Shown: piece by piece, positions 28,305 through 64,000 of the stretch
How positions within the stretch are numbered: position 1 is the first letter of the stretch
How the letters are laid out: the number at the start of each line of letters is the position of its first letter
NCBI GenBank assembly: GCA_008632985.1
Contig: QPGO01000102.1
Location: 62,001-126,000 of the forward strand
DNA length: 64,000 nucleotides
Source of the DNA: Psammoneis japonica
Lineage: Eukaryota
Reading direction: 5' to 3'
Notes under the pieces: model-generated
The model's input: the letters and a program-made list of their open reading frames with translations, nothing else
Databases searched by the model: none
Told to the model about the DNA's origin: nothing
Program-made: the position numbers and the translations under genes

Positions 28305-28630
28305 AGCTAGCAAACGAATGAGAGTGCAGGTGCGTGATGTTGTTGGTTGTGACGATTGACGATGTGAAGTAAATGCACGTGAAACTCAGTACAACTTCTA
28401 CGTGAGAAACATCATGCTGAGATGAGAACGGGAATAAGAAAAATAAGGTATGGTCCCTAGCAAATGGAATAAAGCCATTGGGGCATTTGTTCTATTTTTG
28501 TGACGCTCCAGTGATGCGGCAATTCTGCTCTACCGCATCTCCAACGATGACCACATTGAACATCACCAGACGTCCTGGAAGAAACAGAAAGTGTGCAAGG
28601 GCAAGAAATCAATCAATGACAAACTCTCTA

Positions 28631-31200: not shown

Positions 31201-31381
31201 AACTACACGCTGGACTGTTGTCCTCGTCAAAGACACACCATAAAAGTTGAATTCTTTCTAAATAATGGTTTACTCCTCATCAAGAACTCTAGAGAGAAAA
31301 ATGTACGACTAAGCCACCTCGAGTGAGACGGCAAAACACGAATGTCGAAGAACAGTACAGCAAGCCAAAGCGAAGGAGAAT

Positions 31382-40155: not shown

Positions 40156-40609
40156 GCTTCTCGGCCAATGCCATCAAACAAATACGCAATAAACTGGCGG
40201 CGGTAATTCAATACTGCATACGGCAGCAACAGCAGACGGGTTGGTGGCAGTCTAGTCGCTCTTGATCGCATCGTTGACACAGCGAAGTGCGAAAGGAGCC
40301 GCCGCCGCAGTGCCGGCAGCACACTCAAACTTCAAGTTGGATCGAGAAATTTAGCCTTCTGTAACTTACAGTGACGTACTACAGTATGTATTCTTATATT
40401 CCGTTTGCTCGCTCTGACATCCCCATTACCGGGTACGCGCCGGTGGCATTGCCGTACATCCTGAATCGCGCAACTCCTCGTCATCCTCTAAAGACTGGAG
40501 GAACTAACGCACAGCAGCCTTTTTGCTCCACTGATGGCTCTAGAGAGAGGCTAAAGTGGCAGCTAGCTGGCAGAAGCAGTTACAGTTATCAACCATGTCA
40601 GCTAACGTG

Positions 40610-43380: not shown

Positions 43381-43457
43381 GCCCTCATAGAAAATCCTTA
43401 CTGTAGATTTTTGATGGGTCGGACACTTCTTGACAGGACTACTACAGTACAGTAATA

Positions 43458-44412
43458 AATTGGTCGGTCATTTCTAGAGTCATGGTCATTGGTCGTCAAA
43501 ATTGAAAATGTCAAAAGATCCGCGGATCTGGCAGATCTCGGATAAGCTCGTCCGGTTTCTTGCCGCATGCCGATGCAAAACAAACTGAAAGACACGGAAA
43601 GATTCACAATGGTGATGTGTCCGNCCAAGAGAAGAGGATCTTCTCCTCCAAAGAGTGCCTCTTGCAATGAGCACATTTTCCGCCTGAGCAGCGCCGAGGT
43701 GTCGATGATGCTGAGACATTTGCAATGTGATGCTGAAGATCAAAAAAGCAAAGCTCGATGAGTGAGATTGTTGGAGGGAGGGGCGGCTCATGCACCGCCG
43801 AGCCACCGGCAGCTGAGGCAGCTGAAGGAAGAGCCCCAGGATCGGGTCGAGCGAATGGTGGGTCAACCAGAGGGATCCGATGCAACGCCACACGACCCTT
43901 CCTCAAATGTTCTAGGAAAGGCAGAGGGGGTGGAACGTCACATGATAAGATCCAATGTCGCTGTTCAGCACGATCGATTGAGGTACGACGAGATGGCGTT
44001 TTGTTGACTTTGTGCCGAAAAAAAGCCGACGATTGTACTAACCCTCATGTCTGGTTTTGTTGAATCCAATTTTTGAATGTTTCCGTTGGGGTGTCTTTTG
44101 GTCATTTACGTTAAATTTACTTATGAATATTATAACGGCCCGTAGATACACGAATGACCAAAGTGTAGATACACATGGCGAGCCACCCACAAAGAAAGCA
44201 AGTGGTCAATGCTCCCCGCAGGCCTGGTTTTATCTTGTTTTTTGGTTGGACACTTGCGTTAATTGGTCGGTCATTTCTAGAGTCATGGTCATTGATCGTC
44301 AGAATTGAAAATGTCAAAAGATCCGCGATCCAGATCTCAGATGCTCTCGTGCACCATGCCGATGCAAAACAAACTGAAAGACACGGAAAGATTCACAATG
44401 GTGATGTGTCCG
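43458..44412 (+). repeat. Diverged ~155-165 bp direct repeat (43458-43623 and 44261-44412) with an N at 43624; probable haplotype or scaffold join
   Basis: Both copies read AATTGGTCGGTCATTTCTAGAGTCATGG...GATTCACAATGGTGATGTGTCCG. The first stops exactly at the N; the second continues into the downstream gene. Confidence 0.85.
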
Positions 44413-45952: not shown

Positions 45953-46459
45953 GGCTCCTACACTGTGGACAGTTCTTTGACACCCTTTTTGATCCCCTCC
46001 TTTCCTCCTATATATACCTTCCTCTATAATCTTTTCTGTAGTTTTAGTTCTGCATTGGTTGGGTACGGCCGGTAGTCTTACTCGAGCTGCTAAATCTTGG
46101 TCCTATTTGTTCTTTGTACGGTAGGCGAGAAATGAGAAGCAGCGAGGAATACGGTGCAGAATGCCAACACAGCTAGTTCTACTGGGTGTGCTCGGTCCAT
46201 AAACACAGAACTTATCAATCGACAATGTGCGAGGTTTTGTTTGCCCATTAATTTTAAAGTTGGGTGGTCCGTTGGTTCTGTGAGTCGGAACGAATTGAAA
46301 CTGGATGTGTGACGCGATTCAAGTTTCCCGCTCTGTGCGGAGCCAACTGCTGTCATTTTCTCGACAACAATTGCCTCGTTGATGCTGTTGACAGTCCTTT
46401 CTTTGCAACCATGTCTCTGTGGACATGTGTCTACAGGCAAGTGATGCAGCTGGAGTCTA

Positions 46460-49400
46460 CATCACTCTCACTGCAGGCTGAGACTTTGCTGTGCTTGATC
46501 TTTGCAGTGGTTTGTTTGGGAGACGTGTTGACATCGTTGAACTTGTGGGAATGACAAGCTGCCGTTTGTGACATTGCCTGTTCTCATGACAACATTTGTG
46601 TGCTGGGCATGTGAAGGTGAGACAAGGGAGAGGGAGAATTTGACATTTGTGCTGATTTGTTTGAGATTTCTTGTTGCTTTTTCATGCAAGATGCAAGTGC
46701 TTCAGCAAGGTCGGATTCCAGCCATTGTTTTGGTTTTTTGGACACATGCATGTTGAAATGACAGGTGTGATGGATCCAAAGGTCAAATTCCCTGAGAATG
46801 ATGATGTTGTTTTAATCATCAATGTTCTCAGGGAGCAGTGGAAAGACCAAAATGTAATCAGATGGGAAAGGCTGGGCCCAAAGTGCTTTGAATTAAAAAG
46901 CAGTGGCACTTTTCTGTGCAGAATGCTTCAAGGAGTTGCAGGCATGCTTGGACCATTGGCAAGTTTGCTTGAACATTTGCAAAGCAAGCCAAGAGAGCAA
47001 TGCATTTGTTGGAATTGTCAGGTGGGACTTGGATGTCATGCTTCACAGCAAGCTTGGCCAAGCTGTGTTCTTTCTTTGTTTTGAGTTGTTGAAAAAACCA
47101 CCACCTCCTGCTGCATCAACAATGTTGGAAATTTTGCCAGGGTCAGAGGAGCAGATGCAAGATTTGACATGGCTGCACCAACAACCCAGCTTGCCTTTTT
47201 TGTGAGATGCAGAGCTTGTTGGCCAAGTGGTTGGGTCCAGTGGCTCCAGCCAAGCTGAGCTTGATGTCAGCAGAAAGGAGGCTGCAGCAAAATGCCTTCT
47301 GTGTTCAGCCACTCCTGAGCTGCTGTGACACAGGAGTGCACCAAGGGATGCACCATGAGCTCATGGATGTGCAGACCTGTTTCTTGTTTTTGGGGAATGT
47401 TTGGGAGCTGTGTCACAGTTCGCGCTGCTTTCGAGCTGGCTCAGCAGCAGAAAAAATTGGGTCAACTGGCTGCAGACATGCAAATTTGTGGTGCTGTTTT
47501 GGGAGAGAAGCCAGTGGAGACAAAACAAAGCAGATGAAGGGTGAGGGATTGGCTGCTCTTGAGAGGAGATTTCATGCACTGCCAGGACTCTGTGACAGTG
47601 CTCTTGCCAACAGGGAGCTGCAGGACACCTTTTTTGTCAACACAACAGTGTCTCCTGTCAATGCTGCAATGACAACAACAGCAGCAGAGCTGCAAGAGTT
47701 TGCTGCAAAAGCAAGTGCACCATCACATGCAATCAACTGCTTTTTGTTTGTTGTCAAACAAATGTCCCAAGATGTGAGATCACTTGTGAGCACAAAAATC
47801 ACCACAAAACAACAGAGTGCCGTCACGGTGCTGTGCTCACAATGGAGAATGCCTCAATTCTGCAGGCAAGCAGCTGAGGTGAGCCAATGCCAAATCAGCC
47901 ACAACTGACATCTTGGGGAGACAACCAGAGATCAGAAGATGAAAGGATGGCAGGCACAAAAAAACACATTGAGAGCTGCAAAGTCACCAGGCACATTGTT
48001 GACAAGTCATCTCCAAGGTTGACAAAAGAGCAACAACAAGGGTCTCATTTCAAAAGCAGGTTGTGGCAACCTTTCACAAGAGTGAAAACCCAAAACAAGT
48101 GGTTTGTCTGACTTCCCAAAACCATGGTCAGTTTGGTCATGTGTGTGTGCCCTGCAAGCTGCTGCTCCACAATGGAAGTGGCAAGCACTCAAGCAAAAGA
48201 AACGGCATTCTGTCTCATGTCTCAGAAGGAGCACAAGGAGAGTTTGTGTTTCAATTTTTTTAAGTTCTCCAAGCCTGTGTCATTCACAAACTGCAGCACC
48301 ACCTGGGTTGCTGGCTGGGGAGTGCCCATGTTTGGGAGGAAAAATTTCCCCACTCCAGCTGCTCGGCCACTTTCACATCACAACATTTCCACTCAGGACA
48401 AAGGGCTGGGTTCCAAGGCAATTGTCCAGCTCCATGAGTGTGCAGCAGGGCATGTGGCACGCGCAGCAACAAACAGAAACAAACAGTCAAACCTGGCTCA
48501 CATTGCACAGCAACAACAACATGAAGAACGAAGAGGGAGCCCTCTCTCAGTTTTTTCATTCAACAAGCCAGTGAGGGGGAAAACAGCACCTGGCACTGAC
48601 TTTTGTCAATGGTCGCATTGGAAGAAGCAGCCAATCCTTCTGAGTCACAGCCTCCAATGCCACAGCAAAAAGAGACAGACCAAAGCAGTCAGCTTCATGT
48701 CTTTTGTGGGGAGCTGGAAATGTTCATGATCTGTCCTTTTTTCCAGCAATGCCTGGACACAGCCACACGGAGAAAATGATGTTCCCTGCACTCACAATGT
48801 GAGAAGAGCTGCAGTGCATTGTGTTGTGGAGGAGGCAATGACAACAAGGGCTGGGGCTGGTTTGCACAAAAGGGACTTAAAGGAAGAGCAAGCATGTCAT
48901 CTAAAAAGAAAGAGAGCTCTTGATTTTGAAACTTTGCCTTTGAAGCCATCCTCAAAGATGCTTGTTCAAATGAAGTCAACGCTCAATGATGTTGCAAAAA
49001 AAGAGACCAGTTGGAAAACTGAGGAAGAAGTGCTGCTGGGTGGGTCAGCATGCCCCCCTCTTGGGAGGTTGCACTGCCACTGGGTGGCGGCATGCCAACA
49101 GGTTCAATCATGCCAGGTGGAAGCATGAGGGTGGGATTTGGCCCGCTGTGGGAGCAGCCATGGTGTGTTGGCATGCCAGAGCCATTTGAGGCACTCTCTC
49201 TGTGCAAACTGGTGCATGGCTTGATGCTGCAATGTCCAACAGAAACAATGGGGCACTTGTTTTGTTTTCTCAATCAGAGCACTGCTGCTTTTTGTGGCCT
49301 TGCAACCACATTGGTGGCAAGGTGGGGCAATGGCAATCTTTCGCACTGTAGAGTCATTTGTGCAGAAATGTGTGGAACAGCACCATCCAAGACAATTGTT

Positions 49401-50380
49401 GAAAAGTCTGTCTGTCTGTTCTTAGCGAATTTCAACTTTGCGAAAAATGGACTTGACTGTTTTCTGATCAGGCGCATTTTTCTTCAACACATTTGCAACA
49501 AAAACGCACCTGACCCAATGACAGTCAAGTCTGTTCTTTTTGCACAAATTGTGTGAACACAACAGTTTCAGCACAAAAACATGTAGATTCCACAGGCATC
49601 CACAATTGTTTTGTGCTTTTTACATCACGGGTCATTTTCGAAAGATTCCTGTTGGGTGTGCAGAGCAATCTCTCTGTGACAGCATTGCCAGAGATTGTGA
49701 CATCCAAAAACAGAGTGGCGTGCTTCTTGGCTTCTTGTTTTCTCTCACAGTCAGAGCACAGCTGCTTTTTAAAAGCCCTCAAGGCTCAGTTCCTTCTGCT
49801 GAGGAGATGGCAGTCATGGTGACTGAGAACGTGCAACACGGCCCTGAACATGGAGAGCACCACCCAAAGAAAGAGAGTGTGAGAGTGCGAGAGTGATGTG
49901 CAAAATGACTGTGCCCACAAGCAGTGCAGTGCAACATCTCCATGACACACCAGCTGGAGAATGTGATCCCCGCTGGGAATGATGAGATCACCATGAGAAA
50001 TCCCAACATGATCTCAAAGCAGTTGAGTCGAACACACACCATTGAGCAAGAAAATGTGGAGAAGAGGAGGGGGGATGACTCGATTGGATGCCGACACAAA
50101 ACATTGGCATCAAACCAAAGTTTCGAACTTTTGTGAATGAGGGCCTCAAACCTGGCAACGACTGACATGTGAGCTTCTTCCTTTTTCTCTCCCTTTTTCC
50201 TCCTCCTTTTTTCATGCATTCGGAGCCACCCGCACCACAGGCTCTGCCCGCACCGCTGTGGATCATCGAATCTTGGGGAATCTGGAATCCGTCGCCCTTT
50301 CTTTTACTGCAAAACATTGCTGAACATGATTTTTGAAGAAGCAACCGCAATTGTCGCAATGATGCGTTGAAGTTGCCGTC
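46460..50380. other. TpA-depleted hypermutated island 4 (degenerate element, origin unidentified)
   Basis: About a dozen TA in ~3.9 kb by manual read, mostly in TTA/TAA; CpG very scarce in the core. Confidence 0.85.
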
Positions 50381-50409
50381 GCTACATTCTTTGGCTTGGT
50401 TTTGGACGC

Positions 50410-52104
50410 ATGAGAGTGAGCTTTGTGTGGTTCAGCTTGTCTTTGTTGTGGCTTCGAATTGGATCCGGAAAATCGTTCAGCCCCTTTACCAACAGGATGC
50501 GTGCAACAAGAGCGGCGGCAATTGCTTCCTCTTGTCGCCTTACTCGTAGTAGCAGCAAACGAGCGAAGTCTACGCTCGCTGCGATAGATTTTCGTGACGA
50601 GGACGAGTCATTTACCTTGCGAGGAGATGGCGTGGAGGATGAAACTATCTCATCTTTCTCAGGGTCAGTCGGCCAAAAAAGAAGAAAACGAAACCCAAAA
50701 CCTGCTGTTGTGACGCCTCCTCCACAACCAAGAGCAAAGAGTAGGCAAGCTGTGTCGACAAGAGGGGGCCAGTGACACGACGTTTGAAAACAATTATCTC
50801 CACTGAATCTTCTATTAAACCTTCACCTGACGAACCTCTCGATTCTGAGGACCAAGTTGTCGAAATGCCTCGTGACGAAGAGTTTCTGGACTTGAACGTG
50901 TCTCCGGCGGAGCTCCGTCCTTCCACTACTCTAACAACTGGTCAGTGTTTTCACTGGAGAGCAACGGTGGATCAATCCGCCGATCAAAATTCAGCTTCTG
51001 CATGGGGCTCCTGTAACGCAACAGAATGGGTCGGTGTGCTACCAATACCTGCAGCGGATAATTCCAATACCTTACACTCCGTGGTGGCGATTCGCGAGAC
51101 TCCAACCACCACTCTGTATCGTGCCTTGTCCTTGCCAGCAATGTAACACAGGAGCGTGTCGGCTGTGTCTTGAAGATTACTTTCAGGTGGATTCAAGTCC
51201 TTCTTGAAACAGCTTTATGAGGATTGGAGTGCGGCATGTCCAAGGTTGGCACGAATAGCGCATTGCATTCCAGGGGTTCGTGTGGTACAACAAGATCCAT
51301 GGGAATGCTTGGTGAGCTTTCTCTGTTCCAGTAACAACAACATTCCAAGAATCACCAAGATGCTAAATTCTATTCGACAAACATACGGGGCACCCTTGGC
51401 AACCGTGTCACTGCCCGCTCGCAACGAAGAAGACCGTGGTGAACTTGTCACCTTTTTCTCGTTTCCCACCTTGCAGATTCTGAGAATGCGCGCAACAGAC
51501 GATGACTTGAGAACCAAGTGTGGAATGGGATATCGTGCAAAGTATCTCATAAAGACAATCAGTATTCTGCAGGAACTTGGAGGAGAGGAATTTCTAAAGA
51601 AGCTGCGTTCCAACAGTGATCCATGTGCAGTGCAACAAGAGCTCTGCCAGTTTCACGGCGTTGGTCCAAAGGTGGCAGACTGTGTGGCTCTTTTTTCGCT
51701 CAACCAAGTAGACGCGATTCCGGTCGACGTTCATGTATGGAACGTGGCACGGAGAGATTATGACAAGGACGATAGTTTGAAAATGGCCAAGAGTCTTACG
51801 CCCACGATTTACAACCAAGTCGGGGGATTGTTCCGAGCAAAATTCCCAGAGAAGGCAGGATGGGCGCACTCTCTGTTGTTTGTAGCTGAGTTGCCTAGTT
51901 TTAGGCCGCTGCTACCTGATGATTTGGTCGCGGAAATGGATCAAGTAAGTTCTCGATCCCCCTTTCTTCATTTGTCAATCTTTCTGCTGCAAATTCTCAT
52001 GCAGCCATTCTACTATTACACTCCCAAAGTTTCGGGAATCCGAAAAGGAAAAGAAGAAGAAAAAGGATGCTGACAAGAAAGGGAAAGGGAAGAAGAAGGC
52101 ATGA
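50410..52104 (+). CDS. OGG1: 8-oxoguanine DNA glycosylase/AP lyase; frameshifts near 50770 and 51135-51200
   Basis: LRPSTTLTTGQCFHW, GVRVVQQDPWECLVSFLCSSNNNIPRI, GMGYRAKY, HhH-GPD motif GVGPKVADCVALFSL..AIPVDVHVW, AGWAHSLLF. Intron 51945-52029 gives a Lys-rich tail ending at TGA 52104. Confidence 0.92.
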
Positions 52105-52740
52105 TGAGCAGTGGTGTCGCGCACTTATTGGTAGGGAACTGACTCTACAGAAAGGGTTGAGATTCGACCACGGGGCATTGCAGCGATAGCTCTCAAGGTG
52201 GGAATACCGGAATACTGCCAACGGCTAGTTTCAACAGCTACTTGTAGTGGCATTGAGTAATCAGGAGAACAATCAAAAAATAGAAAACGGATGCAGTCGC
52301 TCTCCCTGGCGCGCCATTATACCAGATATGTGGAAAAAGTAGCCCATCCAAGGTGAAGTTGCAAATAGAATAGCCTGTACAGTACAGACTGTACAGTACG
52401 GTACTGTAGGTCGCGGCGGTGGCAATAACGCGTCACTATCGAAAATACTGAAGTTTTCATGATTTATATTTATTCTATGAATGAAGAAATAATTGACGGT
52501 ACGACAAAAAGACTGGCGAGCGCGCACAAAAGTGACGCATGACGACCTACCGGGAGAGCGAGCGAGCTCACACCCGACAACCGACAACCGCACGTTGAAC
52601 ATCAGCACTGGCGAACGCAAAGAACAAAAAACACAAGGACGTGCGTCTGTTGCTGTCAAAATCAATCATCTTCTATCGCTACTACCCTTGCAAGTTGCAA
52701 TGCTGATTTGCAGTTGATGCCATAGAACAATTAAAATAAA

Positions 52741-55700
52741 ATGTCGTCTTCTTCAGTAACCAAAGACGGCCCCTCGCTGGTGGAAGAAGGCCAGAATGCG
52801 CTAATGATGCTTCTCTTTATTCTAGCAGCCGTGTTTTGGCTGATTCAAAGAGAAAAGAATAATACGCTACTCAAAGAGATACAGCTGTTGGAGCAAAAGG
52901 CTCAAATGAATGGAACAAAGAAAAATCAAGAACAGCAACACGCTCGTCTAATAAAGAAAATTGAAACGTTGGAGAACAGAGTTCAAATCAATCACAAGGA
53001 GCATCGGAACGATCTAAAGGTTGTGGTTCAACGCGCAGTTGAAAAAAGTAAACGAGAGCATGAAAAGGAAATAAAAGAGCTCGAATCAAAATGGGAGCAA
53101 GAGAGGCAAGAAGCGCAAGAGCAACACCGAATAAAGGAAAAAGAATTGCAGGAGAAATTATCGCTAGTTAAAGAAGAAGCAGAGCGGAAGTTGCAAAAGC
53201 GAGAGAAAGAATTGATAGAAAAACACGAGCGAAGAGAAAAGGAGTTGCTACAAAAATTGGCTCGCTTTGAGCATGAGGAAGCGTTACGGATGAAACGCAT
53301 AGAGGAAAAGTCAGAAGAATTTCAGACTCCGGTTTCGTCTCGGGAATTCTCCGTGTCGTCAAGCCTGGTCATGTTTGATGCCTTGTCCTCGCCCCAACTA
53401 GAAAAAAACGCTATGAATGTCGAATCAAACGCAATAGCAGCCTGTCAACAAAATGGACATGGAAATGTCACGGCTGACTCGAGACGAAATGTAACAGAAT
53501 TGCGAAACAATGACGTGGTGTACGACAGTGGCAAGAAAGAGCTGTTATCCAAGGCCGGAAGCAAAAGATTTCGCAAGTTATGTCAAACTTCCGCTTTGAA
53601 TTACGCGAACAGTGAGAAACTAGCCAAACCCTTGGTGGCATTAGAAGTTGTTCAGCAATGGAGACGACAAGATCCAGAAGGACGGTTTCTCGAGCTTGAC
53701 AAGTCCGTCAACAAATGGAATGATGTCGGCGACAAACGAGCGTTGGATATAACTAGTCGTCTGCTACGTGACATGTCCTCCGCGAATGGAAATGGCAAGA
53801 AGCAGAGGGATGAGACAAAACCGATAATGGCCAGAGATGAAAGGTGGACAACGAAAAGTGGGGATGCCATTGAAGAGGATAAACCTACCCTTCGAAAGGT
53901 CTCTTATATGGACGCCGACCAATCTAGGTCGGGAACGATTGGATTGAGTTCAAGGAACGGGACTTTGGAAAATAGCAAGTCTGAGAAGATGTCTACTGTG
54001 GTTGAAAGGGCAGCCAAGAAGACATCGAAGTCCAAGAGTTCGAAAAAGAAGAGTCCAATAATTCATTGCCACGCTACGGAAGAACCCTGCCCAACCATCA
54101 CCCAGGTATTGAAGCGACTGAAGGACACGTCCGTTACGAAGCTTTCCTGCCAAGAAACCGTCACAGATGACGATGTTGTGGCCATTTGCGGAGTGCTTCG
54201 CGTCAAGACGTGCTCCCTTGTCTCGCTATCGTTGAGAAGAAACAATTTGACAGCGACGGCAGCGCAAGCTGTGGGAGGATTGTTGGAAGTGAACGAGTCG
54301 ATTCTAGAATTGGACCTTGCGAGCAACAACATTGGGTCCAACGGGATTTTGGCATTGACCGAACCTCTTGCTCTTCACAACAAAACTCTTGTCCGCCTTG
54401 TGTTGGAAGACAACAACTTGTCAGCAAAGTGCGCAACGTCTATTGGTCGCCTGCTTCGACACAACACGACCCTGAAAGAGCTTCGCCTCGGTGGATCGAG
54501 CCTAGTTGGAAGTTATCACTTTGGTCACCATGGGATCAAAGTTATTGCTCCAGACTTGCAGCACAATAGCAGTTTGGAGACGCTAGCTCTTAATCACAAC
54601 AAATTGGGAACGAAGGGTGCCTTATTGCTGGCAACCAAGGTTCTCAATAAGGACAACGCCATAAGCAGTCTTGACTTATCGTGTAACCGCATTGGTCACA
54701 AGGGCACCGAGGCTCTCTCGCAAGTTCTGCTCGATGACAAGGTCATTCGCAGTTTGAGTCTGAAATCGAATGACTTGGAAAGCGCCGGAGCTCACAGTCT
54801 TGTATGCGTCCTGCGGTTCAACTCGACTCTAACATTGTTAAAACTCGGCAACAATAAGATTGGTGACGATGGTGCTGTAGCGCTGGCTGGTGGACTTGAA
54901 TCCAACTCTTCCCTCGAATCAATCTACCTCGACTGGAACGGTATTGGAAACCGAGGTACAGAAGCAATTTCATCGAGTCTAAGGCAAAATAGCGCTCTCA
55001 AGTTTCTGGATTTGAGCGCAAATCAAATTGGGCCTGCTGGTGCAGATAAACTTGCCGATGCTCTTCATTACAACCTTACTTTGAAAGAATTGAATGTCGA
55101 GAGGAACCAGATTGGAGACGATGGCGTCCGCGCTCTTGGAGGTTTGGTCACGTCGTGTCGTGACAGTGTTTTTCAGTCTCTCCACTGGAAGGATAATAAT
55201 CTCTCTGATGGCTGTTTCGAATGGATGAGTCTCAACGTAGTCCAGAACGATAATTCCAACGGAATTGAAGAAGTCGAGACTGAGTCTACTCCGGTTGAAG
55301 GCAATATCAATGGAATCGAAGAAGTTGAGGCTGAAACTATGCCACCATTGGAGAGTATATCGCCATCGAGTTCGGTAACTTCAACGGCATGTCCACTGCC
55401 TATTCAACCAAAGGCTACTGCTACATTTCCCGAAAGCGAGACAAATCAGCCCATTTGGCTCAAGGCAATGCTAAAGGATTTGAAGGAGAATCGAACGGCA
55501 TGTGTTGATTTGACGAAGAAGTCCGGCGTTAACAATGACGTTTTCGTTGAGTTGATGACTGTGCTGTCTGCAAACAAGTCTACCCGAACACTTTATCTAG
55601 GAGCCAACGTGAATAACGTTATGGCGACTGGAATCAGAAGCCTGGCATCAGTTTTAGAAGAAAATTCTTGCTTGGAACGGCTCTACATTTGTGACTGTCA

Positions 55701-56187
55701 AAACGTTGGAGACAAGGGTCTTGCAATGATTGCCGAGGCGCTAAAGAAAAACAAGTGTTTGAAAACTCTTTCGGTCGTTTCCTGTGGTGTTACAGCCGCA
55801 TCCATGGGCGTAGTCGCGGGTATGCTCCGACAAAATAAGACCTTGCAGCGACTCCACTTGTCAAAAAACAGCATTGGCGACGCTGGCATGAAGCTTCTTG
55901 GAGGATGCTTGGAGAAACAAAATTCCACCTTGAAATCGCTTGCGGTAGCCTACAATGGTATTACCGACCAGGGTTTGACCCATGTCATGCGCGCTTCGCA
56001 AGTCACGGAGTTGCGTTTGGACGGCAACGAAATTACCGATGAAGGAGCGAGGCAATGGTCCAATGCTGCTTCAGGTAAAGGCCCGTGCCAGTATGGGTTT
56101 GTAGGATTGGCTGGTAATAAAATTTCGGCTGAGGGCAAAAACGCGTTAAGATGGTGTTTGCCCGATAGTGCCAAGCTTATGATCTGA
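52741..56187 (+). CDS. Membrane-anchored coiled-coil + DUF6824-type + RNI-like leucine-rich-repeat protein (1148 aa)
   Basis: N-terminal TM (LMMLLFILAAVFWLI), E/K/Q coiled coil, NNDVVYDSG...GSKRFRKL...PEGRFLE...WNDVGD, two blocks of LxxLxLxxNxIGxxG repeats; uninterrupted ORF. Confidence 0.88.
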   Translation: MSSSSVTKDGPSLVEEGQNALMMLLFILAAVFWLIQREKNNTLLKEIQLLEQKAQMNGTKKNQEQQHARLIKKIETLENRVQINHKEHRNDLKVVVQRAVEKSKREHEKEIKELESKWEQERQEAQEQHRIKEKELQEKLSLVKEEAERKLQKREKELIEKHERREKELLQKLARFEHEEALRMKRIEEKSEEFQTPVSSREFSVSSSLVMFDALSSPQLEKNAMNVESNAIAACQQNGHGNVTADSRRNVTELRNNDVVYDSGKKELLSKAGSKRFRKLCQTSALNYANSEKLAKPLVALEVVQQWRRQDPEGRFLELDKSVNKWNDVGDKRALDITSRLLRDMSSANGNGKKQRDETKPIMARDERWTTKSGDAIEEDKPTLRKVSYMDADQSRSGTIGLSSRNGTLENSKSEKMSTVVERAAKKTSKSKSSKKKSPIIHCHATEEPCPTITQVLKRLKDTSVTKLSCQETVTDDDVVAICGVLRVKTCSLVSLSLRRNNLTATAAQAVGGLLEVNESILELDLASNNIGSNGILALTEPLALHNKTLVRLVLEDNNLSAKCATSIGRLLRHNTTLKELRLGGSSLVGSYHFGHHGIKVIAPDLQHNSSLETLALNHNKLGTKGALLLATKVLNKDNAISSLDLSCNRIGHKGTEALSQVLLDDKVIRSLSLKSNDLESAGAHSLVCVLRFNSTLTLLKLGNNKIGDDGAVALAGGLESNSSLESIYLDWNGIGNRGTEAISSSLRQNSALKFLDLSANQIGPAGADKLADALHYNLTLKELNVERNQIGDDGVRALGGLVTSCRDSVFQSLHWKDNNLSDGCFEWMSLNVVQNDNSNGIEEVETESTPVEGNINGIEEVEAETMPPLESISPSSSVTSTACPLPIQPKATATFPESETNQPIWLKAMLKDLKENRTACVDLTKKSGVNNDVFVELMTVLSANKSTRTLYLGANVNNVMATGIRSLASVLEENSCLERLYICDCQNVGDKGLAMIAEALKKNKCLKTLSVVSCGVTAASMGVVAGMLRQNKTLQRLHLSKNSIGDAGMKLLGGCLEKQNSTLKSLAVAYNGITDQGLTHVMRASQVTELRLDGNEITDEGARQWSNAASGKGPCQYGFVGLAGNKISAEGKNALRWCLPDSAKLMI

Positions 56188-56262: not shown

Positions 56263-57533
56263 CTACCTGCTGCTTGTTTTTCTTGCCTTAAATTCCTTTG
56301 CTTCCTTCTCTGCCAAATACTGAGCATACTGCACTTCCCACGACAACTCTTCATCCTTTTTCTTGCCTTGAGAATCTAGCGCCATCCTCTCGCATCCTTT
56401 TCAACTAAATAGGCATGGTACTGCTCCTCCCAGGACGACGACTCCTTGGGTCGGTGAGCAGGACTATGAAGGAAGGGGGAGAGCGACAAGGACATGCGAT
56501 TGTGAGTCTTTCCATTCTATAGTAGAACTAACGGTTTCTAACATTCAAGAAGAAGTACAGTACTCACTCACGCTTCCCAAATTTGTTGGACACCCTCGTA
56601 CGGAGGCATTTGAACCTTGTACTTTTCTGCCAGAGCGGGCGGTAAGAACCGTCCTCCCACAAAGTGTCGTCCCGTAAACGACTTGGCTGCCAATTTGGGT
56701 GCCGTCAAACTAATCAACATTTCCGGTGCAAAGCCCGTCTTTTCGGTGTCGCCGTCATTGACGTTCCATCCCGAGGGAATGTCGACACTGAGAATGGGTA
56801 CGCCGTGGTCTTTTTGAGCCGCCATCATGTCGGACAAGATGGTGGCAAAGGGTTCTCTGGGAGTCCCTTGAAAAGAGAAACCAAAAATGGCATCCACCAT
56901 GATGCTGTAGGAACTCAAATCTTCGGGCATTTCTGTAACAATTTCAATACCCACGTCTTCACATTGTTGTACTAGATTGGCATAATGCGGTTGTTTGGAG
57001 GACTGCTTGGGATAAACCACGGTTGCATCGCATCCAAACATGACCAAGTGGCGAGCTGCCACCAATCCATCTCCACCGTTGTTTCCTGGTCCACAAACCA
57101 CCAAGACGCTGCATGGCTTTGTCTGTCCCTCAAGGGCAGCATAAACGGCTTGGGCGACAGACAAGCCTGCTAGTTCCATAAGTTGCTCCAACGTGAAACC
57201 CGGTGTAGACATGAGTTCCACGTCGAGAGCCGCAGCGTCCTCGGCGTTGAGGTATCTAGTCACTAAATCATTGGTGCTTGTAGATTGTGATGACGATGAA
57301 GTAGTCATTTTGCGGCTCGTTGTTGTTTGTACCACAGACGAGTCAGCACAAGCCAGAGAAGCAAATTTGTTGTTGTGGTTGGTGTCGAGTGCTGTCGCGA
57401 GCGATAGGCACGTAGCAAGGCCTACAGTAGACCAAGAACAACGTAGAGAAGAAGAAGGACAAAGACGATGTCGAGGAGATTTAGTTCGACACACGGAGAG
57501 AAACGAAGCAAGAGGACGTCCAAAAGATACCAT
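56263..57533 (-). CDS. NAXE: NAD(P)H-hydrate epimerase (YjeF_N) with N-terminal presequence and a spliced C-terminal extension
   Basis: LEQLMELAGLSVA, VCGPGNNGGDGLVAARHL, VDAIFGFSF, SVDIPSGW, LISLTAPK. Donor GTGAGT at 56571 and acceptor at 56464 give a second exon ending at TAG 56263 (needs one extra base near 56390). Confidence 0.9.
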
Positions 57534-57616
57534 GGTCGATGAGAAATGAGAAGGCGAAGAGTCCAGAGTGATTTTTCGTTGGCGTAGACCCTACCTACAG
57601 TACTACTACTACTGTA

Positions 57617-58650
57617 TCGCGAGATTTCCAGTGCGTCCGTGCGGCGCACGCCATTTCTTCCATCATCTCCATGTTGTGTGTCCCCAAATCACATGATGAA
57701 GATGCTGCTGAGAGGAGAAGAGCCAAGGCATCTCCAGCCAGCTGCTGACCAAAGAATCTTGTTTAGAATTTGCACTGAAAGAGCCTCTGTCAAGAATCAG
57801 CTTGTTTGGAGCTTTTGGCGAGTGCTGGACAGGCTTGAGGGTCAGCTCAATTGGAAAAATTGAGCTGGCAATGCCCCCAAAAGTCCGCTGACAGGTGGAC
57901 TTTCTTCAGCCAGTGGCTGGTTGGAGACATCCCCTGTGTGCTGTGTTGTGTGTTTGGTGTTTGTTGCTATGCTTTTTTCTTGTTTTCTTTTGTGCATCTG
58001 TCTGTCGTCTGTCAACCTTCGAAGGATGGGCCCACCATGTGCTGCCACCGTGCATGCAACCACATCTGTCCACGTCTGTGCGGTGAATTTCCATCACGTG
58101 GCACACCTGCACAATCTCACAAGCAAGAGGGCAAGAGTGTCTTTGCCAACACCACATGCACACACCACTCACCACTGAGTTCACAACTCTTCATGGGGTG
58201 CTGCGTGCCACCCGCCGTGCCCATGACAAACCCCACAAATCACACAGAATGCAGGCAGTGAGTGAATCATCAGAGTTGGCATTAAAAAATTGACTTCAAG
58301 TCATGCTTGAATGTGTGCTCATTTGTCCTTGTCAGCATCCACCATGCTGGCACTCAAATCTTCTGCTTGCTTTTGAGCAAGACAGCCTCATTGTTGCTCT
58401 CCTTGGCAGCCTCCACGGCAGCACAATTTCAATGTCACTCCTGCAAGCTGGGTGTTTGCAATCCAGGAATCAAATGCCCAATTCATCCAGAATTGGAGCA
58501 GCCTGAGCCACAATGCAAAAGACATCAAAGATCTGTTGGTGTGCAGAATTGCACAGGATTACATGGTGCCGTGTGTTGTGGAATGAGCATGTGTTGTGGA
58601 GAAAGTGCGGAAATCTTTTGCAGCACTCAAAGCATAAAAACAGAGTTGAT
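57617..58650. other. TpA-depleted hypermutated island 5
   Basis: About five TA in ~1 kb, four in TTA/TAA context; TG/CA-rich; sits between NAXE and the ankyrin-TIR gene. Confidence 0.75.
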
Positions 58651-58895
58651 TTTACGCGACCGTAACCTCCGATTTCCCACATCGGTTTGTCAAGGGGTCG
58701 AACTCCACCCCGGCGGTCGCGCACTGACCTTGTTCCTATGCCAATGCCAAAACCACAAGCGGAAGAATCCCTCCATTCTTCATCCGATGACGATGGCCAC
58801 TCGACAGAAACAGACAGCCATCTAAGTTTTGGCAAGATTAAGAATTTAGAATTTCATTATAAAAAAGAGGACGGCGAATTTAATGAAATGTAGCA

Positions 58896-61406
58896 CTATG
58901 GTGAAGGATGCTCCGATTTGTTGTCACGGTAGAACTGCCGCAGGTCACTTGGAACGAAATGTGACAGTTCCATCTTTCGATCAATGTAGGACAATAGATG
59001 CTGTTTCAATTTGAATTCCGAAATCCGCGCAAAACCCAAGACGTCACAGAGTTTAGGCCACAGAGTGTGAATCATGAATGTTGGGGCATAGTGGGTGTCA
59101 CTTGAAACCCGGATGATATTCTTCAAGTCCTGATGGTAGTCGTCGAGATTATCCAACCGCCAGAGTGCCGGTAACAAACAAAAGTCGTGGTCCAAGTAAG
59201 GCACCTCCTCGTGGACTCGATGTGGTTGCTTTGTCGCGCGGTAACGATTCATGAACGTATTCAACTCCATCACACAGAATTCACGCATAATGAAGGTCGG
59301 TGAAAGAATCACGAGAGCGTGCGTGCACTTGTAGGCTGGGGGTACGAGGGCTTCTAGTTTGGAGGATCCCCAGATGGCACTTTCATCATCCAAGAACACA
59401 TAATTAACGTTCAAGCAACGTTCAAGGAACCACTTCGTGGGTCTCGCGATGTCATCTTTTACTCCATCCTGTCCTGTATGAGCCACGTATACATACGTCT
59501 CCTTACACATGGGCCACTGCTCCATGGGATTCGCAATATGAGGAAGCTTCAAATGGCCCACGAAACGTCGTGTTCCGTCCTTGGACCGGCAGAGAGTATC
59601 GACGCCGCCGGAGTAGGCCCCTTTTCCGTTGTTGTTGATGCTGCCGTGTACAACTATGCTGCCGTCTCTGATTCCCTCTTCGTTGTTTGGCGCGAGGGTT
59701 AGTTGAAGTGGCGGTGCCGTTTGGTCACTAGCATGGTTCAGTAGTTCAAAGTCACTTTCCTCTTTGATCCGTCGTTCCAATGTTTCCTTTTGTCGTAGCA
59801 ATTCTCGTCGATTCTCGAGGGAAATCTGTAGATCAAGCAATTGATTGTTCAAGTCATCCAATTGTGCTTGCATTGCCATTATTGATACATACTTGTCAGG
59901 AAAAGAAGAGCACAATCCCTCAAAAGCTTTGATGCGCTTCTCTGCATTAACAGCTGCATCACACTCCGCCAATGTAGCGTTTGGTCGACTTCCCGTCACC
60001 ACAAGACTTCGTAGGCGAGACATTTCAGCATCGATCCCTGCTCGCAATGGATAATGTTTCGCCAGATACGTCAACTTTGTTTCTTGTCGCGCCAAGTGTT
60101 CGACAACTGAAACCAACCCGGCCTCATTGCTCCGCTGGCTACGAACCATATCCAATGGAGTGTTGCCTCCATGGTTGGTTGAAAAGACGTCGGCTCCAGA
60201 TTCCAGCATATGTTTGACAACGTCCAAAGACTCTGCGCATGCCCCATGGTGCAAGGCGGTTAAACCTTTTTTGTCTCTGGAATCAATGTTGGCTCCTTTC
60301 TCCGATAAGATCCGAACCATTCCCAGGTGACCACGATGAGCAGCCATATGCATTGGCGTTTCACCACCTCTCGTATCTTTGGCATTGACGTCGGCGCCAC
60401 TTTCGAGTAAGCACTTGACCATATCCAAGGCCCCTTCCGCGACAGCCAGGTGTAATGGCATTCTGCCTATCTTGTTTCGCGCATTGATGTTGGCGCCATT
60501 TTCCAGTAAACACCAAATGACTTGGGTATTCCTTTCTCGATCATTGATATCACTCTTCGTATCACTATTTGGCCGAGCCGGCAGAGTTGGCGTAGAAAAA
60601 AGGGGGCGAGATGTTTGTGGATTGCGTATCTTGGCAGGTTTAAGGTCCTTTTCGGGTTTTCCAAGAAGTGCAGCATGGTGAAGTGGGGTGTTACCTTCCT
60701 TGTCCGGCGAATTCGGCTCGGCTCCTTTGTCGAATAGATGCCGAAGCATGTCCAAACTCCGATGTTTGACTGCCTCGTGCAACAAGGAATTTTGCTTTTG
60801 ATTCAGGGCGTTCGCATTCGCTCCTCTCTCCAGTACATATTGAACAATATCCACATTTCCACGGGACGCTGCCCAATGTGACACTGTATCTCCATTACCG
60901 TTTCGAGCATCGATATTGGCAGCCCGCTTGTCGAGTATAAGCTGAACAATGTCCATCTTCCCATGAGATGCTGCCCAGTGCAACAGGGTCTCTCCTTTTT
61001 GGTTCATCATTGAAGCATCCGCTCCACTGTCCAGCAAACAGCAAAGCGCCTCGACGTTCCTCTTCTCAGCAGCCTTGTGCAATGGGGTTTCGCCGGTGCT
61101 GTCCTTGGGGTTGACATTGATGCCGCCCTGTTTCAACAGAAACTGCATCACGATCATGTCGCCGCGAAATGCCGCAGAGTGCAAGGCCGTCCATCGAGAA
61201 GCACCGGATGCGGCATTAACATCAGCTCCCTGTTGCAGCAAATACTCCACTACGCACAGTTTGCCATTGTTGGCTGCTTTGACCAGGGGCGTCGCGCCCT
61301 TGGATCGACTTGTCGCACGAATCAGGGCAGGCTGTTTCTCGACGAGTTGTTGCACCCTTTTCATATCGCCCGCCTTGGCGGCAACAAAGATATTGGCGCC
61401 CAGCAT
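58896..61406 (-). CDS. Ankyrin-repeat + coiled-coil + C-terminal TIR-like domain protein
   Basis: About 11 ankyrin repeats (GETPLHKAA, GNTPLHHAA, GRMPLHLAV...), heptad region, then YVYVAHTGQD...VFLDDESAIWG...HALVILSPTFIMREFCVMEL...LLPALW, matching the TIR strand/helix pattern. Confidence 0.85.
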   Translation of the reverse strand: MLGANIFVAAKAGDMKRVQQLVEKQPALIRATSRSKGATPLVKAANNGKLCVVEYLLQQGADVNAASGASRWTALHSAAFRGDMIVMQFLLKQGGINVNPKDSTGETPLHKAAEKRNVEALCCLLDSGADASMMNQKGETLLHWAASHGKMDIVQLILDKRAANIDARNGNGDTVSHWAASRGNVDIVQYVLERGANANALNQKQNSLLHEAVKHRSLDMLRHLFDKGAEPNSPDKEGNTPLHHAALLGKPEKDLKPAKIRNPQTSRPLFSTPTLPARPNSDTKSDINDRERNTQVIWCLLENGANINARNKIGRMPLHLAVAEGALDMVKCLLESGADVNAKDTRGGETPMHMAAHRGHLGMVRILSEKGANIDSRDKKGLTALHHGACAESLDVVKHMLESGADVFSTNHGGNTPLDMVRSQRSNEAGLVSVVEHLARQETKLTYLAKHYPLRAGIDAEMSRLRSLVVTGSRPNATLAECDAAVNAEKRIKAFEGLCSSFPDKYVSIMAMQAQLDDLNNQLLDLQISLENRRELLRQKETLERRIKEESDFELLNHASDQTAPPLQLTLAPNNEEGIRDGSIVVHGSINNNGKGAYSGGVDTLCRSKDGTRRFVGHLKLPHIANPMEQWPMCKETYVYVAHTGQDGVKDDIARPTKWFLERCLNVNYVFLDDESAIWGSSKLEALVPPAYKCTHALVILSPTFIMREFCVMELNTFMNRYRATKQPHRVHEEVPYLDHDFCLLPALWRLDNLDDYHQDLKNIIRVSSDTHYAPTFMIHTLWPKLCDVLGFARISEFKLKQHLLSYIDRKMELSHFVPSDLRQFYRDNKSEHPSP

Positions 61407-61759
61407 TCCTTTTACATACCGGTACAATCACCGCACTCCAAAACTCCCAACACTGCATCGGATGCGATGCCTTTGTTGATAAGGCCGGCTATCCAGCAGT
61501 TCCTCTCAGCCAGATAGAAGAAGAAGAGAAAAGGAAAGGAAGGAAAAAATAAACATTAATGAAGGTTTGAAAGGGTGCGCTGCAGTGCCGTAGTGCGTAC
61601 AGTAGTGAAGACGGACGTAGACAGGTGCAGACGCGCTACGTGGAATTTGGTGCGAAGTGTCATACGTTTACGTGCGCAGAAGGATGTGGATCGCCAACGG
61701 CTGGAATAAAGCAGCACACCACACAGCAGTGAGTGCAGCTCTGTCATCACGGCGCTAGA

Positions 61760-63218
61760 ATGGCGGAGGACAACATCGTTGCGTCTGGCAAAGCAGAGGA
61801 TGTAGCAGCTCCGGAAGTCATGGCAGAACTCACGGGCGCCGAAGGCGTGGCGGCAGCTGCCATGACTGCACTTGGCGCCGAGGGAAGTGCCGAGGGTGTG
61901 TCCGTCGAGTCCGAACGCGCAAGGATGTCGGAGAAGCTGGCGCAGTCCCAAACTGAAAAGAGTGAGAAAGCCGTGCCGCCGGAGCCAACCTTTCAAATTT
62001 GTGGTTGGAATGAAGCACAGCAGCTGGGTTGCACCGCCGAGCAGCTCCTTGGGGCCGGTTGCAAGATCGAGTTGGTGGGTGATCAGGCCACCTTTGTGAA
62101 ACCGGAGGTCCTGCCTTTTTGCAGCGGCAAAAGCGAGGAGGCAGCCAAGCCCGCGGCCAAAGTGGTTGCGAAAGCAACGGCGGAAGAGGAAGAAGAAGGA
62201 AAGCAATTTCCGGACCCCAACGATCCGTCATTCGACTTGTGGGACTGGGTGTTGCGGCACGAAAAATCCGATAAATTCCAGGAGTCCATGTGCCTGATGA
62301 AGGATGCGCCGAACAATCCCAACCTCTGGTTCCCCGCACTGGGAGAACTGGGGTGCATCAGGAGCGACCCTGAAGCCGTCGCGAATGCTCACAGCAAACA
62401 CTGCAAGTGGGTGTGGAGGTGCCGCACGGAAGTCGGCGAGAGGGGCATCCCAGACTCGACGCCGAAGAGCAACAAAGTGTTCAAGACCGCCATCGAGGCT
62501 TTCGAAGCGGGGTGGTTGCTCGCACTGGTCTGTCTCGTGAAGAGAGCAAGTGCAGAAGTGTGCACATTTGGATGAGGCGCCGCGTCACTTAACCTGCGTT
62601 GTTTTGCCTCGAAAAGTCCGTTCGCTCCGCAGGCCCCAAGGAGGTGGAGGTGGGCGAGCTGCGCGTGTCACAACGGAGGGGCGCAGGCATTGGTTTTTTT
62701 GCCTTGTGCCAGTTCCAGAAAGGCAGCACGGTTGGAATCTACGTGGGCCCCAGGGTGCCCGGTACGACGAGGAGCCACTCGTGGTGCGACCACGACAGCA
62801 AGTTTGGAGAAGACCACAGCGTGTGCTGCTCCACCATCCGTGACAGCGAGGGCCACTGTGTCACAGTGGAGCCAAAACGCTTGATTTTAGTGGTCCAGGG
62901 AACAAGAGTTCCCATCCACTCTACCTCAGAATGCACTGCGTGAACGATGCCACCGAGTCGTTCAAGGACAAGAAGAAGATCAAGGCAAGCCAACACACGG
63001 ACAACAACTGCAAGTTCTACAACGACGGGTGCTTGGCAGTCACGAAGCGAATCATGCCCGGGGAGGAATTTCTCTGCAGATGCAACTTGGACGAATCGGA
63101 GAAGAAGAAGAAGAAGAGGAAGGCGACGTCGGGTGCCATGAATCGGAAGAAGAAATCGTGTCTACTCCCCAAGTCGGGGGGGAGAAGCTCTACGTCTGGC
63201 AAAATGTCTGCCATGTAG
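61760..63218 (+). pseudogene. Degenerate SET-domain protein gene
   Basis: ELRVSQRRGAGIGFFALCQFQKGSTVGIYVG (SET-N), MHCVNDA...NNCKF...LAVTKRIMPGEEFLCRCN (SET-C; the GEEL.xxY Tyr is replaced by Cys). Stop or frame breaks near 62575 and 62900. Confidence 0.7.
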
Positions 63219-63328
63219 TGTGCTCTGTAAATTAGCAGCACAGTGTGTTGGTGTTTTTCAGCGAAACTGTGGCATTGGTTGGAAAGGCGTGGCCCCAATT
63301 GTGGTTCGAAAAATGGGAACGAGGAAGA

Positions 63329-63455
63329 ACAGAAAGTCGGTAAATTTACGCAAATCCAGCAAATTAGCAGGTGCCTGCACAGTCGCCTGAGCACAGAAAG
63401 TCAGTAAATTTACGCAAATTTAGCAAGTTATTTTGCACCATCACAGTCGCCTGAG
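63329..63455. repeat. Two 64-bp tandem copies, each containing the palindrome GTAAATTTAC
   Basis: ACAGAAAGTC(G/A)GTAAATTTACGCAAAT at 63329 and 63393; CACAGTCGCCTGAG at 63378 and 63442. Confidence 0.85.
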
Positions 63456-64000
63456 AATGGTCTCTTCCTCTAGAGAAAGGGGGATCGAATTGTTGTTCTT
63501 GCCCACTGCAGCACTCTTCAGGTGGAGAGACATGCAAAAGAACTCGTCGTTTGAGTTTGTCCTGCTGGAGATGCAGTGGCACTTGGTGGGGTTAAAAATG
63601 ATGACATCACCAAGCCGGAGTGCAACGGAGATGCCTTCGGTGGGGAAGCAGAAGCATGCCACAATCCCGTCATTCATGGTGCAGCTGCCGGACGGAGGGA
63701 CTCCCACCACGGTGACTGCTGACAGGAAGAAGTCCTGGTCCCAATGGGCATTGAGGAAGACATTGCGCCCAGCCGCCAGAGAGGAGAAAATGCCATCTGA
63801 CCGCACCAGGGATTTCCAGTTGTGAAACTTTTTGACACGAGCGACACCCTCAAGGATGGCACAGTCCACGTGCTCATTGACAAGGTGCTCCATGCGTGAA
63901 AGAAGTCTGGTGAGGTGGTGAGTGTGTTGGTCGGCCATGCCAGGCTGCTTGCAAGAAATTGGAGTGTCCCTCGTGGCAGCCAGGCCAATCGTGGAACACT
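63441..64000 (-). pseudogene. TET/JBP-like 2OG-Fe(II) dioxygenase, Tyr-depleted by hypermutation (5' end outside window)
   Basis: FSSLAAGRNVFLNAHWDQDFFLSAVTVV...FCFPTEGISVALRLGDVIIFNPTKCHCISSR...CMSLHLKSAAVG: HxD...H double-stranded beta-helix pattern. Frame is open to the window end; no Tyr in about 185 aa. Confidence 0.6.

Follow-up and report, generated by a model that had tools for sequence, protein, structure and literature searches.

A probable decayed transposon copy with convergent SET-like and TET/JBP-fold dioxygenase genes, in a setting of TpA-depleted islands

Dioxygenases of the TET/JBP type were reportedly described as passengers of fungal DNA transposons by Iyer et al. in 2014. 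Their fungal carriers include Kyakuja, Dileera, Zisupton, Plavaka, EnSpm and Helitron elements among others, according to Kojima 2025 (PMC12730594), and escape from methylation-based silencing is the role proposed there for the oxygenase. In red algae, Plavaka, Zisupton and Fanzor-bearing elements carry the accessory cassette PAG2/PAG3, a SET gene with a presumed oxygenase of the 2-oxoglutarate (2OG)-dependent kind that moves between transposon families, while Plavaka elements with three accessory genes are described from Bostrychia moritziana and anti-silencing is proposed for the SET and 2OG-oxygenase genes as well (bioRxiv 10.1101/2025.02.11.637652). HarbingerS and MuDR elements of Phytophthora, a stramenopile, are a further case of a SET gene captured by DNA transposons (Kojima & Jurka 2014, Repbase Reports, as cited in the two sources above). 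Transposons with TET/JBP genes, transposons with SET genes and the red-algal combination of a SET gene with a 2OG-oxygenase are all documented in papers or preprints. The present analysis concerns positions 61600-64000, the right-hand end of a 64-kb window (the whole stretch of DNA analysed, from Psammoneis japonica contig QPGO01000102.1; all coordinates are positions within it), where a SET-like gene faces the gene of an HxD...H oxidase. On balance, we favour the view that the last 2.5 kb of the window are a decayed copy of a multi-copy repeat, most likely a fragment of a DNA transposon or of a cassette carried by such elements, with convergent SET and TET/JBP genes. What is new is that SET is paired, in a seemingly different lineage, with a TET/JBP-fold enzyme whose HxD family escapes Pfam.

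The locus resembles the fungal TET/JBP transposons of PMC12730594 in that an oxygenase gene stands beside a Plavaka-type transposase in related loci, in that its kinship is visible by structure only, and in that CMD1, NgTET, CcTET and TET2 are the nearest solved enzymes. The related loci referred to throughout are 30 (L001-L030), obtained from a scan of metagenome contigs for the oxidase family. The locus differs from those transposons in that the source looks non-fungal, the neighbour is a SET-like gene and not a transposase and the window copy is dead; moreover, the PE-type TET/JBP proteins of fungal Plavaka have HxE (Kojima 2025, PMC12730594), whereas HxD is found here, both in the window copy and in at least 90% of the family. 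The likeness to PAG2/PAG3, drawn from their description in the preprint, lies in the combination of a SET gene with a putative 2OG-dependent oxygenase. PAG2, however, has an N6-adenine methylase domain (PF01555), for which the 280-aa open reading frame (ORF) upstream of the SET-like part gave no match at E<=1; PAG3 has a ParB-like N-terminus, and the N-terminus of the oxidase falls outside the window; and neither ORF A nor ORF B, the accessory ORFs in the 30 related loci, is a SET gene. Unlike the Phytophthora elements, the locus shows no Harbinger or MuDR transposase and its SET gene is accompanied by a TET/JBP-like gene.

A preliminary description of this DNA had placed a SET-like gene on the plus strand and an HxD...H gene on the minus strand, tail-to-tail. 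Both ORFs were found at those positions and are convergent. Their features are as follows.

61760-62549, plus strand: presumed exon 1 (263 codons, rich in Ala and Glu, none of them Tyr) of the SET-like gene
61760-62572, plus strand: ORF holding exon 1, with its ATG at 61760, from the ORF list
62550-62632, plus strand: putative 83-nt GT..AG intron, read by hand, joining exon 1 in phase with the SET-like frame
62633-62877, plus strand: N-terminal half of the SET-like part with the GxG and YxG blocks, from BLASTP, hhalign, six-frame rank and atlas features
62877/62878, plus strand: 1-bp deletion (frameshift) in the window copy, from the frame change and from contigs of run X1 with an extra C
62880-63218, plus strand: C-terminal half of the SET-like part, Lys-rich tail and TAG stop (63216-63218), -1 frame, weak collinear matches
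63081-63083, plus strand: codon TGC (Cys) at the SET catalytic Tyr position, from the profile alignment
63219-63440, no strand: spacer of 222 bp between both stop codons, TpA density normal
63326-63453, no strand: tandem pair of 64-bp units (80% alike), whose second member overlaps the final codons and stop of the oxidase gene
63441-64000, minus strand: oxidase gene, C-terminal 185 codons (63998-63444) and stop (63443-63441), 5' end cut by the window end
63746-63738, minus strand: oxidase HxD of the iron triad, present in the window ORF
63578-63576, minus strand: distal His of the iron triad, present in the window ORF
63524-63522, minus strand: oxidase His in place of a Tyr conserved at 96% in the family consensus
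63656-63654 and 63683-63681, minus strand: oxidase Cys in place of conserved Tyr of the family consensus

The structural models provide good support for the HxD...H gene as a TET/JBP-fold 2OG/Fe(II) dioxygenase. The AlphaFold2 model of a 265-aa homologue, P0005 (predicted local distance difference test, pLDDT, 93.8; predicted template modelling score, pTM, 0.91), matched CcTet (E 7e-9), NgTET1 (2e-8), CMD1 (8e-7) and TET2 (1.5e-6) in a Foldseek search of the PDB, with FTO and ALKBH enzymes behind, and an independent aligner, VIA-align, gave TET2 (Z 16.6), NgTET1 (14.9), CcTet (13.1) and CMD1 (12.6), followed by ALKBH3 (11.7). For the model of the 185-residue fragment of the window itself (pLDDT 88.7), Foldseek ranks 1-10 were all CcTet, and NgTET1 and CMD1 came next. 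The assignment to TET/JBP, which had been made from motifs, is upheld by these searches, as they rank TET/JBP enzymes first and AlkB/FTO second, with no non-nucleic-acid oxygenase ahead. The top structural matches, CcTet (7vpn, 7w5p, 8jkk), NgTET1 (4lt5, 5cg8, 5cg9), TET2 (4nm6, 9hxv) and CMD1 (7cy4-7cy8), have the HxD...H triad in common with the window protein; they differ from it in an identity of 10-16%, in that Pfam Tet_JBP is unmatched here and in the Tyr-x-Lys that follows the distal His here.

The sequence family to which the oxidase belongs is large. Six homologues of 265-312 aa share 34-43% identity with the window ORF, and a profile search with the homologues retrieved 1238 clusters at E<=1e-3, of which 898 reach E<=1e-10 and 335 reach E<=1e-30. 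In alignments of 128 and 117 members (residues numbered as in the window ORF) just two columns are invariant, His85 of HxD and the distal His141, whereas each of Asp87, Asp89, Tyr159, Lys161 and an F-x-F-P block is present in at least 90% of the family. The near-invariant Lys161 stands in a Tyr-x-Lys block and may take the part of the Arg by which TET/JBP enzymes bind 2OG. The iron-binding triad is complete in the window ORF, which lacks its N-terminal ~80-95 codons as these fall beyond the window end. Pfam gave no match for this ORF at E<=10, PF12851 (Tet_JBP) included, and NCBIfam gave none either; among seven members searched against Pfam, four matched Cupin_2 and two Tet_JBP (best E 0.061). 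Searches of the PDB by phmmer and hmmsearch with the oxidase and its profiles yielded chance matches only (E 0.4-1.7). The family was not found in viral contigs, and no further copy of the gene occurs in the 64-kb window.

The nearest solved enzymes act on 5-methylcytosine (5mC), and CcTet acts on N6-methyladenine (6mA) too. By analogy with these enzymes, 5mC is the default guess and the most likely substrate of the oxidase, with thymine or 6mA as further candidates; for such diverged types, Kojima 2025 (PMC12730594) allows for substrates besides 5mC, thymine included.

The plus-strand gene is very likely the carrier of a SET domain of the lysine methyltransferase type, as the preliminary description had proposed, with weaker support than that for the oxidase. 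In a protein-language-model atlas, the nearest clusters were SET for 30/30 in the C-terminal half and 22/30 in the N-terminal half, with top scores of 0.94-0.95. A tblastn search of plasmids with the two halves returned matches at E>=2 throughout, one of which (E 8), in a gene annotated as SET, served as a lead; the bacterial protein encoded by that gene matches Pfam PF00856 (SET) at E 2.7e-18. Against this protein, the N-terminal half showed 16/33 identities (BLASTP E 4e-7, for a single comparison) and the C-terminal half three weak collinear pieces. A profile of 30 bacterial SET proteins aligned with the N-terminal half by hhalign (probability 83%, E 9e-6) and weakly with the C-terminal half (E 0.03, probability 1.6%), this match falling exactly on the GEE..Y block. 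When the two halves were read through with an X at the break, the score was 17.0 bits, which none of 2000 shuffles reached (top shuffle 7.8 bits); the N-terminal half alone scored 14.7 bits against the same top shuffle. In a six-frame search of 3551 segments, from the window and the 30 related loci, the N-terminal half ranked first and the C-terminal half second. Of the C-terminal blocks of SET proteins, NH(S/A)C and ELxFDY, the profile alignment places the GEE block correctly, with the Cys encoded at 63081-63083 opposite the catalytic Tyr; aligned by eye, the His of the NH block is kept and its Asn replaced. The NCBIfam search with the N-terminal half gave only a LegAS4-type family (E 0.16), and phmmer against the PDB found no match for the C-terminal half. 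A kinship of the C-terminal half with accessory ORF B of the related loci (E 0.064) was considered and dropped, as the alignment of ORF B is without SET blocks and the SET profile reached at best E 3.6 in those loci.

In the ORF list, the SET-like frame lacks an ATG. In view of this, and of the in-phase 83-nt GT..AG segment, the ORF starting at 61760 and the SET-like frame are treated here as one gene, probably spliced. The exon 1 ORF had no match in Pfam or NCBIfam, no recognised domain and no homologue of 149-475 aa; its coding status is uncertain, since long ORFs come cheaply in TpA-free DNA. An intron was also considered as a cure for the frameshift within the SET-like part; by hand, no GT..AG pair of the right phase was found, and a 1-bp indel in X1 explains the break.

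A link between the oxidase family and DNA transposons is evident from the related loci. In 21/30 of them an ORF of 950-1018 aa lies on the opposite strand, tail-to-tail and within ~100 bp of the oxidase stop, and 6/9 of the remaining loci end within ~160 bp of the oxidase gene. Of four large ORFs scanned, three match Pfam Plavaka: that of L001 above the curated cut-off (E 1.7e-11, 44.4 bits), those of L011 (1.6e-5) and L012 (8.3e-5) below it; L009 had no match. The earlier statement that genes of this kind travel with DNA transposons thus holds for the family, with its Plavaka-type partner in 21/30 loci, and intact members are probably accessory genes of DNA transposons. Seven loci have two further conserved ORFs, A and B, without a Pfam family. 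As to the organisation of these elements, a four-gene layout of oxidase, convergent Plavaka-type transposase, ORF A (with an LFPRFKF block) and ORF B (with an acidic tail) is seen, for example, in L012:2139-8442 and L001:1686-8832, while in L015 ORFs A and B are upstream of the oxidase instead. The oxidase frame of L001 is fused with a fungal-type Zn2Cys6 domain (E 2.2e-6), and in L027 a 1221-aa open frame runs across the oxidase.

The stretch 61500-64000 is a diverged multi-copy repeat and not a single-copy region. In the one sequencing run used for copy number (X1), with the stretch split into 30 bins and pieces taken at >=90% identity, 459 contig pieces cover all 30 bins, 131 of them at >=99%, 187 at 95-99% and 141 at 90-95% identity. 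Two X1 contigs (depth 958 of 1561) have an extra C behind 62877, which restores the frame from 62880; hence the window copy has a 1-bp deletion. The base differences listed from X1 are transitions in 37/37 cases and fall within the CA/TG <-> CG/TA network in 33/37, the window having CA/TG where other copies have CG 19 times and TA eight times, with the reverse seen twice and four times, respectively.

The same direction of change is apparent in the codons. There is no Tyr among the 185 oxidase residues (family mean 4.1%) or the 280 of the upstream ORF, and only three Tyr codons occur in the SET part. The window oxidase has TGC, TGC and CAC where 70, 90 and 96% of the family have Tyr, and each replacement can be reached from TAC by a single transition at a TpA (TpA -> TpG/CpA); at 63524, another X1 copy has A for G, a Tyr codon where the window has His159. 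The proposal that Cys and His stand for Tyr in this DNA is well borne out by these positions and by the Tyr-free 185 and 280 residues. On its sequence, the window copy is dead: the SET part is frameshifted, and residue changes, all of them TpA -> TpG/CpA, have put Cys in the place of the catalytic Tyr of SET and Cys, Cys and His in that of three conserved Tyr of the oxidase. The TpA counts of the region follow the genes, with two observed against 32 expected in exon 1, two against 29 in the oxidase and eight against 27 in the SET part.

These observations bear on an explanation of the pair as normal working genes of the host, present as single copies, with a composition that is unusual through codon usage. 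Both frames are long and open and the SET gene shows no depletion of CpG, as such an explanation would have it; it is already contradicted by the 459 diverged contig pieces over the stretch, by the frameshift within the SET-like domain, by the missing Tyr with Cys/Cys/His at positions of 70-96% Tyr conservation, and by the other copy that keeps its Tyr codon at 63524-63522, and we regard it as scarcely credible.

A stronger competitor is that two unrelated repeats or gene relics abut by chance, a SET-like fragment beside a fragment of a TET/JBP-bearing transposon, with no functional or mobile link. Several results weigh against a SET-plus-oxidase element and some of them speak for this alternative. 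Among the X1 pieces listed, none spans both genes or the whole stretch, so that the two genes may be adjoining repeats, and X1 contains 0.42 of the sampled words of the stretch, the window copy being only partly represented. No SET relative was found in the 30 related loci (0/30, by tblastn and with the SET profile), and in 21/30 the neighbour that follows the oxidase is a Plavaka-type transposase and not SET. In the whole 64-kb window, tblastn at E<=1e-2 found no relative of the transposases or accessory ORFs of these loci, and in 61300-64000 no convincing terminal inverted repeats were found, at least one element end being outside the window. The component genes have adverse results of their own. 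Neither SET half matched Pfam at E<=10, a score that is halved by the frameshift splitting the domain; the C-terminal half alone scored 5.4 bits against the top shuffle of 7.8, which is not significant; no homologues of the SET-like gene were detected (C-terminal half against the longer-protein class; upstream ORF, 149-475 aa); the only PDB match of the N-terminal half by phmmer was chitinase-like (E 0.005, 40 residues) and is taken as chance; and in the oxidase family just 1/117 members matches Pfam Tet_JBP (E 0.003).

The pattern of TpA is divided as well. The preliminary description set both genes inside one hypermutated island; both are indeed TpA-depleted, but the spacer, with nine TpA against 17 expected, and the upstream region 61428-61759, with 14 against 19, are at background level, and CpG is largely kept (rho 0.5-0.9 at the SET/oxidase region, unlike the other islands of the window). 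A single island is an over-simplification, as the depletion is patchy, and the normal TpA of the spacer, unlike that of both genes, agrees with a chance junction. The spacer is also the site of the tandem 64-bp units, and most of the TpA remaining in the region is found there.

Chance abutment is, however, opposed by the X1 coverage of all 30 bins, the spacer and both gene ends included, by the same kind of decay in both genes and by the red-algal precedent of a SET gene and a 2OG-oxygenase that form a mobile cassette of accessory genes (bioRxiv 10.1101/2025.02.11.637652). We consider it rather unlikely, and prefer the decayed repeat with both genes in one mobile unit. The earlier picture of a mobile epigenetic cassette is accordingly kept in part: the association of the oxidase family with Plavaka stands, while SET and oxidase as one unit face the want of a transposase and termini in the window, of a listed piece spanning both genes and of SET in the related loci.

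If the preferred reading of a single mobile unit is right, the product of the SET gene would be of the lysine methyltransferase type and would add histone lysine methylation or compete for it, and the TET/JBP-fold dioxygenase would oxidise a methylated base in the DNA of the element. The most plausible role of the pair in intact copies would be to act on the chromatin and DNA of the element itself and so resist silencing. The window copy cannot act as an anti-silencer, since both of its genes are damaged; its decay is ascribed to repeat-directed transitions in this genome, by which TpA, and elsewhere CpG too, becomes CpA or TpG. An anti-silencing role has been proposed for fungal transposons with TET genes (PMC12730594) and for the accessory SET and 2OG-oxygenase genes in Plavaka elements of red algae (bioRxiv 10.1101/2025.02.11.637652).

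The transitions are a feature of the window at large. Nine TpA-poor stretches make up 15.4 of the 64 kb, with TpA rho of 0.05-0.15 against ~0.56 elsewhere. Delimited by TpA rho, they are:

2026-3850, no strand: TpA-poor stretch
28476-31250, no strand: TpA-poor stretch
40576-43400, no strand: TpA-poor stretch
43476-44025, no strand: TpA-poor stretch
46251-50525, no strand: TpA-poor stretch
57626-58650, no strand: TpA-poor stretch
60951-61350, no strand: TpA-poor stretch
61676-62875, no strand: TpA-poor stretch
63426-63975, no strand: TpA-poor stretch

The five large ones have a CpG rho of 0.23-0.45 and a CpA/TpG rho of 1.6-1.8, and their base composition is hardly altered. The island at 40822-43074 is a duplicate, ~70% identical, of the adjacent 37795-40036, which has normal composition and encodes DUF6824 proteins. 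In BLAST alignments of the pair, the island keeps 0/28 of the TpA of the normal copy, 13 having become CA and six TG, and 10/64 of its CpG, 24 having become CA and 12 TG, while other dinucleotides are kept at 33-80%. One copy alone is affected, and the segment is of host-gene type with no recognisable transposon. Among the 62 TpA surviving in islands, 13 (21%) lie in TTAA, against 3.9% of 1771 background TpA, these being small numbers; none lies in ATAT, against 6.8% of the background.

The process recalls fungal repeat-induced point mutation (RIP): in both, duplicated DNA is hypermutated by transitions and compositional islands remain. RIP, however, changes CpA to TpA and creates stops, whereas here TpA and CpG become CpA/TpG and TAA and TAG stops are erased; base composition stays balanced here, and in the sole paralogue pair examined one copy is affected. 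The hallmark of RIP, C-to-T at CpA with an excess of TpA, is absent from the islands, which show the opposite (TpA rho 0.05-0.15, CpA/TpG rho up to 1.8). Because the process destroys TAA and TAG stops, genes that are dead keep the look of ORFs. The islands, for example 46251-50525, have overlapping long ORFs in all six frames, with 91 stop-to-stop segments of >=75 aa in ~13 kb, 0% Tyr and raised Cys and His; a Pfam family was found in 0/9 and 0/91 of the island ORFs. In this genome, genes cannot be told by the length of an ORF. A literature search of partial coverage returned no account of TpA-to-CpA/TpG hypermutation of repeats, which is weak evidence that it is unpublished. Such repeat-directed hypermutation is the more surprising part of the analysis, yet it is the setting of the SET/oxidase finding and not its claim.

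It had also been speculated that a thymine-oxidising member of the oxidase family causes the T-to-C changes at TpA. A TET/JBP-type enzyme of this family, or host paralogues, would oxidise thymine at TpA to 5-hydroxymethyluracil (5hmU) or 5-formyluracil (5fU), which would mispair with G and lead to T-to-C (A-to-G). More broadly, TpA erasure would be the footprint of 5-methyl oxidation of thymine by TET/JBP-type enzymes and, with 5mC loss at CpG, the work of a repeat-directed A:T to G:C mutator. The direction of change, seen in the X1 copies, the family consensus and the DUF6824 paralogue, is as required, and the chemistry is plausible: 5fU gives mainly A:T -> G:C (PMC7051996). In dinoflagellates, TET/JBP homologues produce 5hmU as a mark of repeats, and thymine had been found earlier to be replaced preferentially in TA and TC (both from bioRxiv 10.1101/2023.11.30.569493). 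All 30 loci with the oxidase family have, nevertheless, ordinary TpA (rho 0.55-0.79), and the mean Tyr content of the family is 4.1%. The window has no other copy of the gene, yet ~15 kb of other islands are affected; the hypermutated duplicate of the host-type DUF6824 segment carries the same changes; the oxidase gene is itself a victim; and adenine deamination at TpA would leave an identical pattern. The chemical plausibility of the speculation survives, while its attribution to this family sits poorly with the normal TpA of the 30 loci, the damage to the gene itself and the islands without the gene, so that both the narrower and the broader form appear very improbable to us. If true, the mutator would mirror fungal RIP while keeping reading frames open, and elements carrying the oxidase would be both agents and victims.

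Some neighbouring features of the window complete the picture. At 58896-61427 (minus strand) an 843-aa ankyrin-repeat protein is encoded, the C-terminal region of which has a faint TIR_2 match (E 0.089); its gene starts ~330 bp from the ATG of the SET-like gene. The X1 pieces suggest that repeated DNA reaches left of 61516, the border between host gene and repeat not being fixed. No Rfam family was found in 57000-64000. Large frames at 31385-37175 (minus strand) with POR_N, TPP, 4Fe-4S, flavodoxin, FAD- and NAD-binding domains combine a pyruvate:ferredoxin oxidoreductase with a P450-reductase-like module, an architecture that we take to be that of pyruvate:NADP+ oxidoreductase. At 52735-56184 (plus strand) a 1150-aa ORF combines leucine-rich repeats with DUF6824, which, with at least three occurrences in the window, forms a local gene family.

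Transposons with chromatin- or DNA-modification genes of their own are rare and show mobile DNA fighting silencing. The present locus adds a large TET/JBP-fold family that is invisible to Pfam, with 1238 clusters at 50% identity and ties to Plavaka-type elements in environmental eukaryotes, and a possible SET-plus-TET pairing beyond fungi and red algae. The window copy, in addition, preserves a clear record of an unusual kind of mutation, from TpA and CpG to CpA/TpG in repeated DNA. The accompanying loss of Tyr codons and of TAA and TAG stops makes dead genes, and even non-coding DNA, resemble long ORFs, which matters for gene callers and annotators, and the process merits study whatever its cause.

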